From an uncultured Thermoplasmatales archaeon (GTDB lineage Archaea; Thermoplasmatota; E2; DHVEG-1): DNA of 41,301 nt. Location of the stretch: positions 1 to 41,301 of the forward strand of contig CAZXHI010000068.1 of assembly GCA_964640555.1 (NCBI GenBank), read 5' to 3'. Made by a program: the position numbers. Each line of letters begins with the position of its first letter. The stretch's first letter is position 1. This document shows, in pieces, positions 33,001 to 39,000 of the stretch.

Positions 33001-36000
33001 GTCTAAACACGGACAATTTAGCTGATCTCACCAGTTTTTTTAATCGTTTAACAGGTTCGGGTAAGATAATAATTGTGACGGGTAATCCCAACGAGTGGCC
33101 GGCAGAAATTCATAATGCGTTTAAAATGATTTGTGATATTAATTTTAAGGTTACTCGTGAATCTATGCCAGGGATTGGTATAGTTCATAACATTTATCTT
33201 GAAAAGTTTAACGGTGCGCGTCATAGGTTTGAACCTTTGACTACGTTTTCTGTCAAACCTGGTACGGGGCTTGCAATTGAAACAAGTGGCGTGGCATTCT
33301 AAAAAAGAAAGGTCAGAAATATGTCAAGGATGGGGAAAAGTGAGGAAAAAGAACTGTTGCAAAATAATCCTCATCTTCAGAAATATCTTGAGAGCATTCA
33401 GAAGAAAATGGACAGACCAATTTTTTACAGTAAGTTAACTGGGGACGTCAAAGGGGAGAAATATCCTAATGTAATCTATCTTACAAAAGAAGTTGTTTTT
33501 ATACACATCTATCGAACCGAAGACATGGACAATATATTATATCATGCTATTGAGCCCATATTAAACGAAGCGGAGGAGAAGAAACGCGATGAGCTCCTTG
33601 AGCTCATGTATGAAAGAGCCCATCTTAGAATAAATATTAAAACCCAAAATGAACTGAGAAAAGCCATCGAAGAGGTTTTAGATGAAATTACTATCGTAGA
33701 CGAAAAATCCGATGGTAAATTAGGAAAATCAAAGGGGGGAAAGGTAAGAGTTACTTCCATCGAAAAAGCAAATATTAAATATGATATTACCAAGAATATT
33801 GTCGGTGGTGGCCCTCTTGAGCCTTTTATGAGAGACCCCAATATTGAAGATATCCATATCATAACTGGGCAAAATGTTCATCTTATCCATAAGACTTTTG
33901 ATATGGTGGAAACAAATATAGATATCGATAAAAAATGGGCTTCTACATTTTCCCAAGATTTCGCCGAGAAGATTGGTAGTCCAGTGAGTGATGGACAACC
34001 TATTGCTGACGGTACATTACCTGATGGAAGCAGAGTTAACATCATACATAGCAAGGATGTAAGCCTAAAAGGACCTACAATGACTGTCAGAAAATTTAGT
34101 GAAACACCCATTAGTATAACACAGATTGTGAATTGGGGAACACTTAGCTCTGGAGTCGCTGCATATCTATGGCTTTGTCTACAGTATGGTAGAAGTATAT
34201 TTGTTTGTGGTGAAACAGCATCAGGTAAAACAACTACGGCAAATGCAATGTTTGTTTTTATTCCACCTGAAAAAAAAATCTATTCTGTCGAAAATACGCC
34301 TGAGGTACAGGTGCCTCATGCTGTATGGCAACAGCTACTTACAAGATCAACGGGACCTAAAGAGGGGCATGTCGATGAAGGAGATCTTTTAAGAGCGGGG
34401 CTTAGATCCAGACCAGATTATATTATTCCGGGAGAGACTAGAGGGATAGAAGGAAGAGTCGTATTTCAAGCCATGCAAACAGGACATCCAGTTGTAACAA
34501 CGTTTCATGCAGGATCTGTCACAAAAGTAATACAGCGTTTTACTGGACATCCCATCAACATACCTAAGACGTTTATGGATAATCTAGACGTTGTACTAAT
34601 ACAGATGGCTGTAGAACGAAAGGGAAAAAGATTAAGACGAGTTCTATCCATAGATGAGATAGAGGGATATAATAAAGAGGTAGATGGCATAATGTCCCGT
34701 ACAGCATTTCAATGGAATGCCACCGATGATACTCATATATTCAAGGCAAATAGAAACAGTTTTACTTTGGAGCAGAGGATAGCAAAAATGGCGGGATTTG
34801 AAGATCCGACTATGATTTATGCTGAATTTGACCGGCGAAAACATATTATTGAACGAATGGTAGAGGAAAAAATATTTGATTATTACGAGGTTGTTCAATT
34901 TATTTGGACGTATTATCGAGAGGGGGAAAAAGGATTGCCCATATCGATATAGAGAATTGGAGAAAAATAGATCGTGGTGATGTAATTAAGGAAAGGGGGA
35001 ACATACTGACGCATAAAATGAATTGTAAGTTAGAACGAAAAGATGCAATCGATATATACGTCAGGAGATAGAATATGGAAAAAATGGAAGAGGGTAAAGT
35101 AGAACAGCTCCTTAAAAAACACCCACACCTGCAAAAATATGTTGAGAATGTAAAAAAGAAAATGGGTGAACCTGCATTTTATTCGACGTTACCCATGGAT
35201 CTGAAAGAAGAGACTGAGCCTAATTTAGTATATTCTACCCGCGGCTCTGTTTTTATACACATATATAAAACAAGAAGCATGGAAGAGATAGAATACCATG
35301 CCATCGAACCGGTGTTGGATGAAGTGGAAAAGGAAAAACACGACAGGTTACTAAAATTGATAATAAAAAAGGCACCTGAGAAGAAGAGTGTCATAGATGA
35401 TAATGAACTAAAAGAAATCCTCAAAGAACTTATAGATGAGATTATTGAGATCGATGAAGGAGCAGGTGATATAAAACCTGAAAAGAAAGGGAAAAAAGGA
35501 AAAATTGGTAAGAAAGACAAGGTTAAAGCTACTACCATCCAGAAAAACAACATCGAATATTTTTTAATTAAAAACATGATAGGCGGTGGCCCCATTGAAT
35601 GTTTCATGAGAGATCCGTATCTAGAGGATATCCACATTGTAGCCGGAGAGAAAATTCATCTTATCCATAAGATTTTTAAGATGATTAAAACCAATGTTGA
35701 AATCAATAAGGACGATGCGCCTCTATTTACACGAAAATTGAGCGAAAAAATGGGTGTCCCTGTAAGTGAAGGGCGACCCATTGTCGATGGAGTATTGCCA
35801 GACGGAAGCAGAGGGAATATTATCTACAGTTCTGCTATTAGTAAAAAAGGACCAAGCATGACCATTAGACGTTTTAATGAAACTCCCATCAGTGTAGCAC
35901 AGCTTATAAAATGGGGAACTCTCAGTTCTGGAATTGCTGCATATCTATGGATTTGTTTACAATATGGCCGTAGTTTTTTCCTCTGTGGAGGGACAGCATG

Positions 36001-39000
36001 TGGTAAAACAGCTACAATGAATGCGTTAATTCCTTTTATACCTCCTGAAAAGAAAATTTATACTACTGAAGGAACTCCTGAGTTACAGGTGCCGCATACT
36101 GTGTGGCAACAGTTACTTACAAAGACAAGTGGGCCAAAGGAAGGACAAGTGGACATGTTTGATCTTCTAAGGGCTGCATTAAGGTCTAGACCGGATTATA
36201 TCATACCTGGGGAAGTTAGAGGTGCAGAGGGGAACATCGTGTTCCAGGCTATGCAGACAGGACACCCATGTATGACAACATTTCACGCAGGTAATGTCAC
36301 AAAGGTTATACAGAGATTTACTGGAGACCCGATTAATGTACCAAAAACATTTATGGACAACCTTGACTTTGTGGTGATACAGCTACTTACAGAGCGAAAT
36401 GGAAAATCAATGCGAAGAGTCGTCTCCATAGATGAGATTGAGGGATATAACAGGGCAGTAGATGGTATAATGTCAAGAACTGCTTTTGAATGGAATGCCA
36501 TAGATGACGAACATATTTTCAAGGCAAACAGAAACAGTTTTATTTTAGAGGAGAAGATAGCACGTAATGCCGGGTATTCAGATCCAGCTGAGATTTATGA
36601 CGAATATGATCTTAGAAAACACATCCTTGAAAGAATGGTTGAAGAGAACATAATGGATTATTATGAAGTAGTTAAGTTTATTTGGGCGTATTATCGAAAA
36701 GGCGAGAAAGGATTACCTATAACGATATAGTGAGAAGAGTATGGCAGAGAAAAAGAAAAAATCTAAGAAAAATTCCCAAAAAAAAGATAAAGAGAAAAAA
36801 CAAGATTTTATTAAACAACTTAAAATTGCCTACAGGACTCTTGAAGATCCTAAGAAATTTTACAAGACAATCCTACTTCCATTGATTGTAGTAGGAGTAC
36901 TAATTTTTTTAATGCCTTTTATCCTAGAAATAGCTGTTCCAGTACCTTTGAACTTTAATCTCATTACATTTATCGTTGGCGGAATAGTTCCAATATTTCT
37001 GGGAATTTTTTATCCATTTATAAGTTGGAAAAACAAGGAAGCAGATATCAATGGGAAAATGCATTTTTTTATAACTCATCTTCGAGTCTTAGCCATCTCA
37101 GATCTTTCCTTAAGAGACATAATTAACATGCTTGGTGGCAAACCAGTGTACGGTAGTTTGGGAGAGGAAATGAAAAAAATTAGTGCCCTTTCTACACAAT
37201 GGCGTGTTCCTCTTGCCAAAAGTTTCCAATTTATATCAGCCAGAACACCAAGCAAAATACTCAAGGATTTTTTAGATCGTTTTTCACAGAGTCTCAACAG
37301 TGGTGTGGAGCACAGAGAATTTATAGAAACAGAGCAAAAAGCTGTTCTACAAGAATACAAGACAATGTACGAGACAAGCAATGAAAACATAACGATTTTA
37401 AATGAAGTATATGTAAGCTTGCTTATCGCTATTATTTTTGTGATGTCTCTTGGAATAGTTTTACCTTTCGTAATGGGTGCAGAGAGCATGAGCACATTTG
37501 TTTATCTTTCATCGTTTTTGCTCATAATATCTGAAGGGATGCTGCTTTACCTCCTAAAATCCATGATTCCTCCAGATGAAATATGGCATCTGACTGGTGA
37601 AAAGGGCGAATTGGAGGAATCTCTTGGCAAGACGTTCAAATCATCTGTTTTAATGTGTATATTACTTGGATCCATCCTATTTTTTGCAAAATATGGGTTA
37701 TCTGTCCCCCTCTTGGACATGGTTCCATTTGAAATCATTTTTGCTATATCAGTTACTCCTTTAATTATCACTGGGATCAAAGTATTCACTGAGGAGGGGG
37801 ACATTTCGAGAAAAGAGATGAATTTCTTAGGGTTTTTACCATCTCTTGGCTCTATTTCCACGATGAGGGGGGGAAAGATAAACGAATCAGTATACTACCT
37901 AAGTGAAAAGGATTATGGAGTTTTATCAAGACACATTAGAAATCTTTACAGGAGATTGAGAACAAGGATCAACGATGATGATTCATGGGAATGGTTTGGC
38001 GTGGATACCGGTAGTAACTATATTCAAAGATCAAGTGAAATGTTTAGAGAGGCCACATATGCAGCGGCAAATCCACGTAAGGCTTCAAGAATGATAGCCG
38101 AGAATATCAGGAAAATTAGGGACTTGCGTATTAAAAAAATGGCGATTGTAAATACTTCTACTGCGCTTTTTGCTGGCGTTACTTTTGGCATATCTTTTGC
38201 CGTTTATGTTTCGCTTGTTATAAGTGAGCATTTGAATAATATAATGATGGGGATTGGTGATCCTTTCACGGGTATAGGGGAGATAGATGTGGGTTCACTA
38301 CTCATAACTGTCCCCCCTGAGACATACACAAATCTTTCTATTATAATATTTACCGTCTTTGTAATACACTCATTTATAATAGCGTTTACTATTAAAACAT
38401 TGAGAGGCAGCCACAAGTTGATTGTATTACTTTATTTTGTTCCATTTGTGTGGATTGTAGCTGTCACTTGTGCAGTAGTAGAGATGGGATTAAGTGGATA
38501 TCTAGTAGTATAACAGCAATCTCGCAATCATACATAAAGCAATTAGCATCAAAAGGGATGCACAGAGGACAATTCTGGAGAGATAAAATAGTACATGTTC
38601 CACTTTAAGGGGAAATCTCTAAACCAAAGACGATTAGCATGGATTTACAAAGCATTGAAGAAAATCTTTTTTTGGAAAATAAAACACAAAACGACAGTTA
38701 TTCAATGTTATTTTTTTATGGTTGAAGATCTATGATGGTATTAATATAGGCACTAGGCGTAGTGAAACTTATTACTCCACTGATGCCATATTCTGGTATC
38801 ACATTCCCAAATATTCCGGTGCGTGTGGATATACCTGAGAAACATTTGGATGTGTTTACTAATAATACAATCAAGTCTTCATCATTTATTGTTAAAGTAG
38901 TAGATGAGCATGAACCGTCAATATCTCTAACTACCATAATACCATAGGTAGTAGCAGTAAGATTACTAGCGTTTAAAGTGTTGAACAAACCATTTGAGAT

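Follow-up and report, generated by a model that had tools for sequence, protein, structure and literature searches.

How many ATPases drive an archaellum, and how might two of them share one machine? The question is raised by a 41,301-nucleotide contig of an uncultured Thermoplasmatales archaeon (the window, meaning the whole stretch analysed), in which two arlI genes lie within an arlC/DE-F-G-H-I-J operon together with archaellins (Table 1). Passages in PMC12448462 and PMC4858521 do state, as the initial annotation said, that archaella use one ATPase. We found no account of a paired-ArlI archaellum in the published literature searched.

Two intact ArlI proteins in one archaellum operon

Both arlI reading frames are full length and are flanked by a single arlH and a single arlJ, as first described, and the original figure of about 63% identity is reproduced closely (342/551 or 62% by BLASTP; 63% over ungapped columns). 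At the DNA level the genes are 72% identical over 1215 nt, and the pair is therefore neither a recent copy nor an assembly repeat. Contigs of another run match the gene order of the window at about 96%. Open frames of more than 1000 aa hinted at an in-frame ArlI1-ArlI2 fusion, which we reject; each of the four loci read, one of them with an N gap, has two distinct ORFs. No terminator-like site is present on the + strand of the spacer, although the promoter and terminator scan performed at chance level, with sigma-70 rules ill suited to archaea. Short contigs from one metatranscriptome fall on arlC, arlD/E, and arlI2, but such contigs cannot rank genes; two other runs checked for expression are probably DNA.

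Table 1. Archaellum locus and motor ATPase features in the window
Feature	Coordinates	Strand	Remarks
Two more archaellin-family genes	26075-26761; 27018-27935 (span 26075..27935)	-; +	
PAS-domain coiled-coil protein gene	28033..29613	-	Divergent from arlC
arlC	29870..30673	+	FlaC_arch
arlD/E	30680..31573	+	Arch_fla_DE
arlF-like stator gene	31671..32096	+	
arlG-like stator gene	32125..32568	+	
arlH	32592..33302	+	Single copy, KaiC-like; 181 vs 215 bits, below NCBIfam ArlH cut-off
arlI1	33321..34952	+	543 aa ORF
Walker A of ArlI1, GETASGKT	34209..34232	+	
alpha9 region of ArlI1, residues 351-365	34371..34415	+	Holds trans arginine R362; mapped from PMC12019362
Spacer arlI1/arlI2	34953..35074	.	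122 nt; stop and spacer separate the ORFs
arlI2 (Cys-type)	35075..36730	+	551 aa ORF
Walker A of ArlI2, GGTACGKT	35987..36010	+	Recurrent Cys two residues before Lys
arlJ	36741..38513	+	Sole platform gene in genome (tblastn); 464 vs 550 bits, below NCBIfam cut-off
Three archaellin genes	38716-39375; 39647-40327; 40629-41300 (span 38716..41300)	-	Convergent on arlJ

Both proteins score above the FlaI equivalog cut-off (ArlI1 671.6 and ArlI2 668.7 versus 550 bits, NCBIfam NF058587) and are not members of the PilT/PilU family TIGR01420 (42.6 and 40.3 bits versus a cut-off of 319). They have only 31 to 39% identity to the five pilus-type ATPases of this genome (G000) and, in a tree with those five as outgroup, both nest among ArlI, consistent with the initial placement far from pilus ATPases. 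FlaI is the best PDB match (sequence E 1e-105; fold E 8e-45, TM 0.71). The predicted ArlI2 model has the full FlaI fold (pLDDT 76, aligned with 4IHQ over 542 columns), and the N-terminal domain, three-helix bundle, N2 domain, and ATPase domain are recognizable both in this model and, for ArlI1, in an alignment of its sequence with 4II7 that begins at residue 27. The Sulfolobus acidocaldarius FlaI/ArlI (4II7, 4IHQ) thus shares family, arlH-arlI-arlJ operon core, and catalytic residues with the pair; it is, however, a homohexamer of one copy, whereas here there are two diverged copies per operon with reciprocal inter-subunit-site changes and a replaced Asp-box Asp.

The Walker motifs were originally called intact, and all catalytic residues are indeed kept in both proteins, including the Walker A Lys/Thr, Asp-box Glu pair, Walker B Glu, His box, and arginine fingers; R238, R257, K303, T/S304, E324, E328, R362, E372, and H396 are kept by both copies in every paired sequence of the seven lineages compared below. 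In the pair the Asp-box Asp is replaced by N or G, with N in I1 and G, S, or another residue in I2 across the order; N is likewise present in 7 of the 47 single-copy ArlI. A dead second copy is rejected, since every Cys-type copy retains the Walker A Lys, catalytic Glu, and arginine fingers, its P-loop being a variant. Median dN/dS values of 0.040 and 0.052 (37 congeneric pairs) indicate purifying selection on both copies.

Paired arlI genes throughout the order

ArlI matches over the cut-off are present in 88 of the 118 genomes of the order. The window and 80 retrieved loci, a set that leaves aside 7 of the 88 genomes, make up the 81 arl loci examined. Two copies are present in 79 of these, unlike the canonical archaellum with its single arlI per operon, and the annotated spread of the pair across the order stands. 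Sixty-five are intact full-length pairs, and in the other 14 a contig end, N gap, or break truncates one of the copies; the pair is also present in two single-contig genomes (G055 and G093). The two single-copy operons (G054 and G059) branch outside both the I1 and I2 classes. The PAS-domain coiled-coil protein gene occupies the same place in many loci of the order.

Identities and motifs were tallied over 146 proteins, after dropping ORFs that were below 480 aa, cut, or contained X, and trees were built on subsets of 124, 113, and 43 rows. Mean identity is 75% within I1, 71% within I2, and 61% between them, close to the 73, 68, and 61% given earlier. The class P-loops also agree with the earlier description, GETASGKT being present in 70/71 I1 and GGTACGKT in 56/73 I2, although the Cys is absent from 13 of the 73 I2 and the P-loop is fully canonical in 11. 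I1 and I2 form two stable classes over 30 genera, with class-fixed residues. Partial homogenization of the copies had been noted in one genus; it is real but wider than that, with exact shared tracts of at least 30 nt in 23/65 same-genome pairs versus 4/279 cross-genus pairs, and conversion tracts of up to 281 nt. The N2 domain (residues 200 to 260) remains distinct even in gene-converted lineages (57 to 58% between copies versus 88% within I1).

Similar pairs in other lineages

The pair is not confined to the order in which it was first described; similar pairs occur in other Thermoplasmatota, the Methanoperedenaceae, a third archaeal phylum, and the Chloroflexota, and the paired operons in the loci read have one arlH and one arlJ each. 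Pattern scans of the genome collection gave 47 matches, of which 30 are ArlI (25 with a partner and 5 cut by contig ends), and those of metagenomes gave 119, with 30 ArlI-type and 17 with a partner; neither scan found a lone Cys-type ArlI between arlH and arlJ. One metagenome locus type has three arlI copies, the third also with the Cys and RR. The P-loop Cys is absent from most Methanoperedenaceae pairs, and is also found in two pilus-type ATPases. The phylum of genome G463, whose arlI is cut by a contig end, gave 0/31 at E 1e-135 and is excluded from the seven-lineage counts.

Approximately unbiased (AU) tests reject a single clade of I2 and the f5-type second copy (p 6e-40) and of all Cys-type copies (p 8e-6), and a tree of the N-terminal region only agrees. 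A single ancient paralogue that spread across phyla is rejected on these results, although heavy gene conversion could still hide shared ancestry. A clade of f5-type and Methanoperedenaceae copies is not rejected (p 0.22), so the lineages are not all independent. On this phylogenetic evidence, ArlI pairs arose repeatedly, in unrelated lineages.

Reciprocal changes on the two faces of the ATP site

In published PilB, PilT, and CpaF structures each ATP site is shared by two subunits, one supplying the P-loop, arginine-finger strand, and Asp box (its own face) and its neighbor the alpha9 arginine and T-G-H loop (the lent face); the FlaI inter-subunit contacts used here are inferred from those papers. 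Passages of PMC6858323 describe the PilT inter-chain contacts T221-T133, H230-T221, R195-T133, and R195-D161, and propose that T221 from the adjacent unit is required for hydrolysis; by motif spacing, these map to T387-T299, H396-T387, R362-T299, and R362-325 of ArlI. The corresponding PilB contact is T327-T411 (PMC5424180).

In the window, ArlI1 has an ancestral face of its own (R238, R257-K258, GETASGKT 297-304, E324, E328, E372, and H396) and an altered lent face (F354G, A360G), F354, in alpha9, being the position at which I1 is most relaxed compared with I2. ArlI2 has an altered face of its own (R266 for K, G306 for E, C309 for S, A313 for T, and G333 in the Asp box) and an ancestral lent face (F362, A368, and the TGH loop).

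This pattern recurs when the pairs of seven lineages, three of them with one to two sequences per class and two in which the Cys is only nested in the clade, are compared at the 113 columns with an invariance of 93% or more among 47 single-copy ArlI. Breaks in the Cys-type copy fall at S301, T299, and T305 (five lineages each), K258 (four), and T255 and P234 (three each), all of which the partner keeps; T299 and T305 are invariant in all 47 single copies. The partner breaks H389 and D420 (four lineages each) and T387 (two), which the Cys-type copy keeps, and alters the lent face (alpha9 helix and T387/H389 loop) in six of the seven. Breaks seen only in the Cys-type copy number 32 on its own face, a count that is partly circular because copies are labelled by P-loop, 3 on the lent face, and 30 elsewhere; those only in the partner number 3, 13, and 24, respectively. 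A label-swap test omitting site 301 ranks the observed arrangement 1 of 64. For the lent face by itself, a mask shift gives rank 2 of 112 (binomial p 0.011; five lineages for, one against, and one tie), with face masks drawn after the hot spots were seen and from motif spacing, not coordinates. Within the order of the window T299, T387, and H389 are unchanged and the lent-face signal consists of V351, F354, and A360 only; entropy tests were not significant within the order (rank 42 of 375) or for f5-type pairs (rank 29 of 310). In the Methanoperedenaceae the partner has AGN for TGH in 14/14 paired loci, whereas TGH is kept in 16/16 single loci; a homo-ring of this partner would miss the T221 counterpart at all six sites. 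A complex prediction for ArlI1 plus ArlI2 (score 0.01, mark 0.32), run without control folds, was counted neither way.

How two ATPases may share one platform

Both genes are intact, old, and under purifying selection, and the proposed two-ATPase archaellum is upheld. The choice between a heterohexamer and separate motors was initially left open; the cross-lineage comparison now leans to a mixed ring. We propose that ArlI1 and ArlI2 likely co-assemble in one ring, most simply an alternating one, on the single ArlJ platform, with a probability of roughly 0.55. Such a ring would have three ancestral sites, formed by the ArlI1 P-loop and the ArlI2 lent face and presumably performing the power stroke, and three modified ones, formed by the altered ArlI2 P-loop and the altered ArlI1 lent face, which would still bind Mg-ATP but with slow or controlled turnover. 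More speculatively, the P-loop Cys could provide a thiol-based or redox brake. F1-ATPase alpha3-beta3 and other mixed-ring ATPases offer a works-like analogy, with alternating paralogues, two kinds of nucleotide site, and rotary action; the F1 subunits are unrelated to ArlI, however, and one F1 site class lacks catalysis, whereas both ArlI copies keep their catalytic residues. An ArlI mixed ring would favor the three-fold open-closed state of the FlaI crystals (4II7) in the alpha3-beta3 manner. Beeby 2019 (PMC6711533) argues that a duplicated ATPase protomer by default forms heterohexamers. The two-fold cycle that PMC5424180 proposes for PilB-type assembly is at odds with strict alternation, which also leaves the three-copy metagenome locus type unexplained.

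It is possible, if somewhat doubtful, that two separate homohexamers instead alternate on or stack at ArlJ, dividing filament assembly from rotation, direction, or extra torque, in the manner of PilB/PilT or PilT/PilU in bacterial pili. FlaI assembly and rotation are described as separable in PMC10117864, and PilT and PilU, likewise two PilT/VirB11-like paralogues with intact motifs on one machine (type IVa pili), are independent homohexamers that cooperate, according to 10.1101/634048. The persistently distinct N2 domain is what an insulated interface would give, and the GGT P-loop start and RRF of I2 resemble the genome's pilus ATPases (GGTA[ST]GKT; RRF in 2/5). Homo-rings, however, predict that both sides of one contact change in the same paralogue, whereas they change in different ones, and partners with T387A or a lost H389 would weaken all six of their sites despite a perfect P-loop. 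Both copies also retain the N-terminal domain and helix bundle, and C-terminal conversion between them is tolerated. The PilT and PilU hexamers, separate in Vibrio cholerae, pull a pilus, whereas the machine of the ArlI pair is rotary and its sequence pattern points to mixing. Tad CpaF (PMC12019362) is a close structural relative in which the alpha9 arginine reaches the neighbor's Walker A and the P-loop starts with GGT as in ArlI2, but it is one bifunctional homohexamer and does not rotate a filament for swimming.

An optional regulatory ArlI2, present in variable number in an ArlI1 ring and slowing, stopping, or reversing it, possibly via the P-loop Cys in cells mostly without the CheF link, seems unlikely. 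The Cys lies two residues before the Walker A Lys, the position that C522 of p97 holds relative to K524; oxidation of C522 prevents nucleotide binding (10.64898/2026.04.16.718620). The third copy of the metagenome locus type also has the Cys and RR, a PAS protein gene adjoins the operon, and CheF is rare in paired lineages (14/118, 0/53, 3/38, and 0/5). Against this, a Cys at the same P-loop place is common among working ATPases, and here it is missing from the I2 and Methanoperedenaceae copies noted above while present in two pilus-type ATPases. The changed ArlI1 lent face also better fits a fixed than an occasional partner. The initial annotation had linked the pair to missing chemotaxis, and G000 (92% complete) is not among the 14 order genomes in which CheF is found; the link is weak, however, because Methanoperedenaceae lack CheF (0/53) in one-copy and two-copy genomes alike, which also argues against the pair as a chemotaxis substitute. 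Of the 13 order genomes in which I2 has no Cys, 5 carry CheF, these five being one operon clade; 6 further genomes with pairs carry it too.

Dosage and pilus service, neither of which could be excluded initially, both now appear unlikely from these comparisons. That the copies are interchangeable, drifting and undergoing gene conversion while retained for expression level, is very improbable: both are catalytically intact, conversion tracts reach 281 nt, two genomes have a single copy, and higher ArlI levels alter Haloferax motility (PMC10983859), but the two classes are stable across 30 genera, identical substitutions recur in unrelated pairs at the invariant T299 and T305, Cys-type copies are never alone in the two scans, and the single-copy operons branch outside both classes. 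It is scarcely credible that one copy merely resides in the operon and serves another type IV pilus, despite the five other pilus-type ATPases, the pilus-like I2 P-loop start, and the two ATPases of the Cuniculiplasma divulgatum CdiP pilus operon, as both copies exceed the FlaI cut-off and nest in ArlI, I2 directly precedes arlJ in the order, and the pilus locus checked (L428) has its own ATPase and platform. The CdiP genes, CdiPE1 and CdiPE2 (PMC12448462), are also a pair in one archaeal type IV filament operon, their role unexplained in that paper; CdiP, however, is a pilus whose platform is split, and the cell that bears it is reported to be immotile, whereas the ArlI pair is in an archaellum locus.

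Implications for archaellum motors

The pairs beyond the order and the rejection of a single origin are new here, and paired motors contradict the printed single-ATPase rule for archaella. Surveys restricted to single-copy loci, as for the tree of one recent study, would filter out paired systems. Tentatively, and with less confidence than the mixed ring itself, we suggest that motors may repeatedly have passed from a homohexamer to a ring in which ArlI1 and ArlI2 alternate, giving three driving sites and three regulatory ones in an architecture like that of F1, and may have done so separately in no fewer than five lineages from three phyla of archaea and one of bacteria; this ring would fix the three-fold state by which the filament may be spun, and the P-loop Cys that recurs could be a direct chemical control of the motor for chemotaxis-poor cells. 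That a three-fold state turns the filament is speculation in PMC5424180, and how one ATPase both builds and spins an archaellum, and which ring state does which, is an open question. The recurrently changed residues (T299, S301, T305, and K258, and on the opposite face F354, A360, T387, H389, and D420) point to the firing-order contact. The pairs are several independent replicates of a homomeric ring turning heteromeric, and these natural two-gene motors break the build and spin problem down into components that lend themselves to expression, mixing, and mutation one by one.

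The archaellum operon and its ATPase genes

The plus strand of the window carries arlC, arlD/E, arlF, arlG, arlH, two arlI genes, and arlJ, with five archaellin-family genes flanking this operon. The arlI genes are separated by a stop codon and 122 nt, and ArlI1 and ArlI2 are 62% identical, bearing out the initial annotation of two full-length tandem copies with about 63% identity. Both have Sulfolobus acidocaldarius FlaI as best match, and the predicted ArlI2 model has the full FlaI fold (pLDDT 76). The source genome codes for one arlJ and for five distant pilus-type ATPases, and two pilus-type ATPase genes lie near each other on one contig. 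The metagenome relatives L382 and L391 have a Cys P-loop, and two-ATPase pilus operons may thus take the same path.

Features of the archaellum region and two related loci (window positions unless a contig or locus is named)
Feature	Position	Strand	Remark
Secreted protein, 1295 aa	20347-24234	+	beta-helix (NosD-like) and PKD; adjoins motility region
Archaellin-like gene, divergent	26075-26761		opposite the archaellin at 27018-27935
Archaellin	27018-27935	+	additional N-terminal domain (~85 aa) ahead of signal peptide region
PAS/coiled-coil/PAS protein	28033-29613	-	divergent from arlC; same position in many loci of the order; candidate motility sensor
arlI1	33321-34952	+	ArlI1, 543 aa; above FlaI equivalog cut-off
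ArlI1 Asp box	34290-34304		
arlI2	35075-36730	+	ArlI2, 551 aa; above FlaI equivalog cut-off
ArlI2 Asp box	36068-36082		
Closely spaced pilus-type ATPase genes	G000 (source genome), C134:4486-7345		
Three tandem arlI	L322 (metagenome), 2015-7211		between arlH and arlJ; also in L321, L339, L340

Conservation and history within the order

ArlI is found above the cut-off in 88 of 118 genomes of the order, and 79 of the 81 loci examined have two arlI copies (65 as intact full-length pairs). The earlier proposal of a two-ATPase archaellum across the order is supported. ArlI1 and ArlI2 each form a clade, and the single copies of the other two loci (genomes G054 and G059) fall outside both; the operon may have been replaced there, or retained from before the duplication. 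In these single-arlI operons (L072/L427 and L061, respectively) an archaellin gene lies immediately ahead of arlC, and congeners have pairs. We note that one copy is broken into two ORFs in G014 (arlI2; L035/L425) and in G015 (arlI1; L107/L426), which may be assembly error or decay.

Median dN/dS is 0.040 for ArlI1 and 0.052 for ArlI2 (37 congeneric pairs). Exact tracts of at least 30 nt are shared by 23 of 65 same-genome pairs, compared with 4 of 279 cross-genus pairs, indicating ongoing gene conversion between the copies. The partial homogenization noticed initially extends beyond a single genus, and the N2 domain remains distinct even with a homogenized C-terminal half. Genus g19 has two arl operon types (L048, L080, and L081 in G043, G045, and G042; L067 and L098 in G041 and G047), and in the one common to genus g21 the ArlI2 P-loop is canonical and conversion tracts are long, with CheF often encoded elsewhere on the contig.

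Paired ArlI outside the order

Fifteen genomes outside the order with at least two ArlI matches were traced in a phylum sample of 401 genomes; in 11 the copies form a tandem pair (families f5, f8, f32, and f37), and the other 4 have two separate, complete single-ArlI operons (L153 to L160 in G179, G234, G246, and G279, all Thermoplasmatota). One genome, G355, carries two different two-ArlI operons (L144 and L145). When the genome collection was scanned for a pattern of the variant P-loop, 47 loci matched, many of them in genomes that also belong to the phylum sample. Thirty of the 47 encode ArlI within arl operons; among their sources are Methanoperedens, Archaeon BMS3Abin16 (Hydrothermarchaeota), and a record titled Micrarchaeota. 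A partner ArlI is visible in 25 of these 30, the other five being cut by contig ends, and the partner P-loop is visible and canonical in 23 of the 25. Adjacent pairs are present in 14 of 53 Methanoperedenaceae genomes, with one more across two contigs; the BMS3Abin16 phylum has them in 9 of 38 genomes, with one more split. In a Chloroflexota sample, 7 of 401 genomes have ArlI and 2 have pairs.

At least 119 metagenome matches to the pattern are listed, at least 32 of them in the ArlI-related ATPase family: at least 30 ArlI-type (at least 17 with a visible partner) and at least 2 pilus-type. No lone Cys-type ArlI flanked by arlH and arlJ is among these listed matches. The canonical copy may come first, the Cys-type copy may come first, or arlJ may lie in between; the last, arlH-arlI-arlJ-arlI, is seen in L182, L204, and L422 (G465 type), where the Cys-type copy has Gly replaced by Ser just before the Walker B Glu. 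Three tandem copies occur on at least two metagenome contigs, and in L322-type loci the middle arlI is mosaic between its two neighbors, with a Cys P-loop and RR. Single ArlI frames of ∼780 aa in G584 and G583 (L274 and L275) align as two segments, which points to an insertion, perhaps an intein, near the TGH loop. In the Methanoperedenaceae pairs L413, L414, and L188, an arlD/E-like gene follows arlJ on the opposite strand rather than lying upstream.

The pairs occupy several separate positions in trees. AU tests (LG+G4, quick search) reject single clades for the order's ArlI2 with the f5-type second copy (P = 6e-40), for all variant copies (P = 8e-6), and for the f5-type with the BMS3Abin16-phylum variants (P = 0.011); a clade of the f5-type with Methanoperedenaceae is not rejected (P = 0.22). 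Barring a shared origin since overwritten by conversion, duplication would have occurred independently about five times or more.

Recurrent changes in the two copies

Residue numbers are those of ArlI1 (ArlI2 is +8 in the ATPase domain, and FlaI numbers are about 35-36 smaller). R238, R257, K303, T/S304, E324, E328, R362, E372, and H396 are retained in every paired sequence, and neither copy is predicted to be a dead ATPase. The reference for scoring changes was a set of 113 columns with ≥93% invariance across 47 single-copy ArlI. Within pairs, one copy has S301C as the majority state in five of seven lineages; elsewhere this change is nested in Methanoperedenaceae and present on one Chloroflexota-like contig. 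The same copy breaks T299 and T305 (five lineages each), K258 (four), and T255 and P234 (three each), all retained with S301 by the partner, which instead breaks H389 and D420 (four each), T387 (two), and also F354 and A360 in the order and in f5-type pairs. In the window, ArlI2 has K258R, E298G, S301C, and T305A, and ArlI1 has F354G and A360G. F354 is retained in 73 of 73 ArlI2 and 46 of 47 single copies, but in only 1 of 71 ArlI1. In a label-swap test without site 301, the actual labeling ranks 1 of 64. The Asp box has also lost its Asp order-wide, to N in ArlI1 and single copies and to G, S, or others in ArlI2; one clade of single-copy Methanoperedenaceae likewise has N.

Related ATPases would place these sites at the contact between subunits. 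The alpha9 helix of CpaF and its arginine (equivalent to ArlI R362) contact the neighbor's Walker A (PMC12019362); in PilB, the Walker A-side T327 contacts T411 of the next unit, positioned between H413 and H420 (PMC5424180); and PilT inter-chain contacts include T221-T133, H230-T221, R195-T133, and R195-D161, with the adjacent unit's T221 proposed to be required for hydrolysis (PMC6858323). By motif spacing, PilT T133, T221, H230, R195, and D161 would correspond to ArlI T299, T387, H396, R362, and position 325. Cys-type-only changes number 32 on the subunit's own ATP-site face, 3 on the face lent to the neighbor's site (alpha9 and the TGH loop), and 30 elsewhere; partner-only changes number 3, 13, and 24, respectively. 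The lent face, which played no part in labeling the copies, ranks 2 of 112 in mask shifts, with masks set after the data were seen, and by lineage the lent-face excess is five for, one against, and one tie. Counting against the pattern, the matching entropy contrast within the order has the same sign yet ranks only 42 of 375; for the f5 type the rank is 29 of 310. Among the Methanoperedenaceae loci read, the partner has AGN in each of the 14 pairs, whereas TGH is present in each of the 16 single-copy loci.

A proposed mixed ring and its alternatives

The initial annotation left open a heterohexamer or separate motors, and the split contact changes favor the former: we put the probability that ArlI1 and ArlI2 form one mixed ring at roughly 0.55. 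Such a ring would have one ancestral class of site, with the ArlI1 P-loop and the ArlI2 lent face, and a second with the ArlI2 P-loop and the ArlI1 lent face, modified on both sides and retaining Mg-ATP binding. Alternation would be the simplest geometry, and would match the three-fold state, which in the speculation of PMC5424180 could rotate the filament; FlaI states are described in PMC6858323 as three-fold OCOCOC (4II7) and CCOCCO (4IHQ).

Separate hexamers of each protein, for which PilT and PilU offer a precedent (10.1101/634048; 10.1101/2025.10.30.685630), are less likely, in that a homo-ring predicts both contact sides to change in the same protein, whereas they change in different ones. 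It is improbable that one copy is an optional regulatory subunit; CheF is rare in paired lineages and equally absent from single-copy Methanoperedenaceae. A dosage duplication is very improbable, and use of one copy by a pilus even more so. Relative to the Walker A Lys, the variant Cys has the position of p97 C522, oxidation of which blocks nucleotide binding (10.64898/2026.04.16.718620); for ArlI this is a likeness only.

The two-ArlI archaellum is real and conserved, and is unpublished as far as the literature could be searched, no description having been found within a coverage that leaves out supplements and most subscription papers. In the portions accessible, a Thermoprofundales study names FlaI once and does not mention duplicates (PMC9585477), PMC10354927 mentions additional FlaI copies outside the cluster, and PMC10983859 concerns point mutants. 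A Chloroflexota archaellum preprint limits its tree to loci with one copy per core gene (10.1101/2025.02.02.636118), which implies that multi-copy loci were encountered and left undescribed. The two-ArlI archaellum is a variant of a known machine that offers a testable mechanism.
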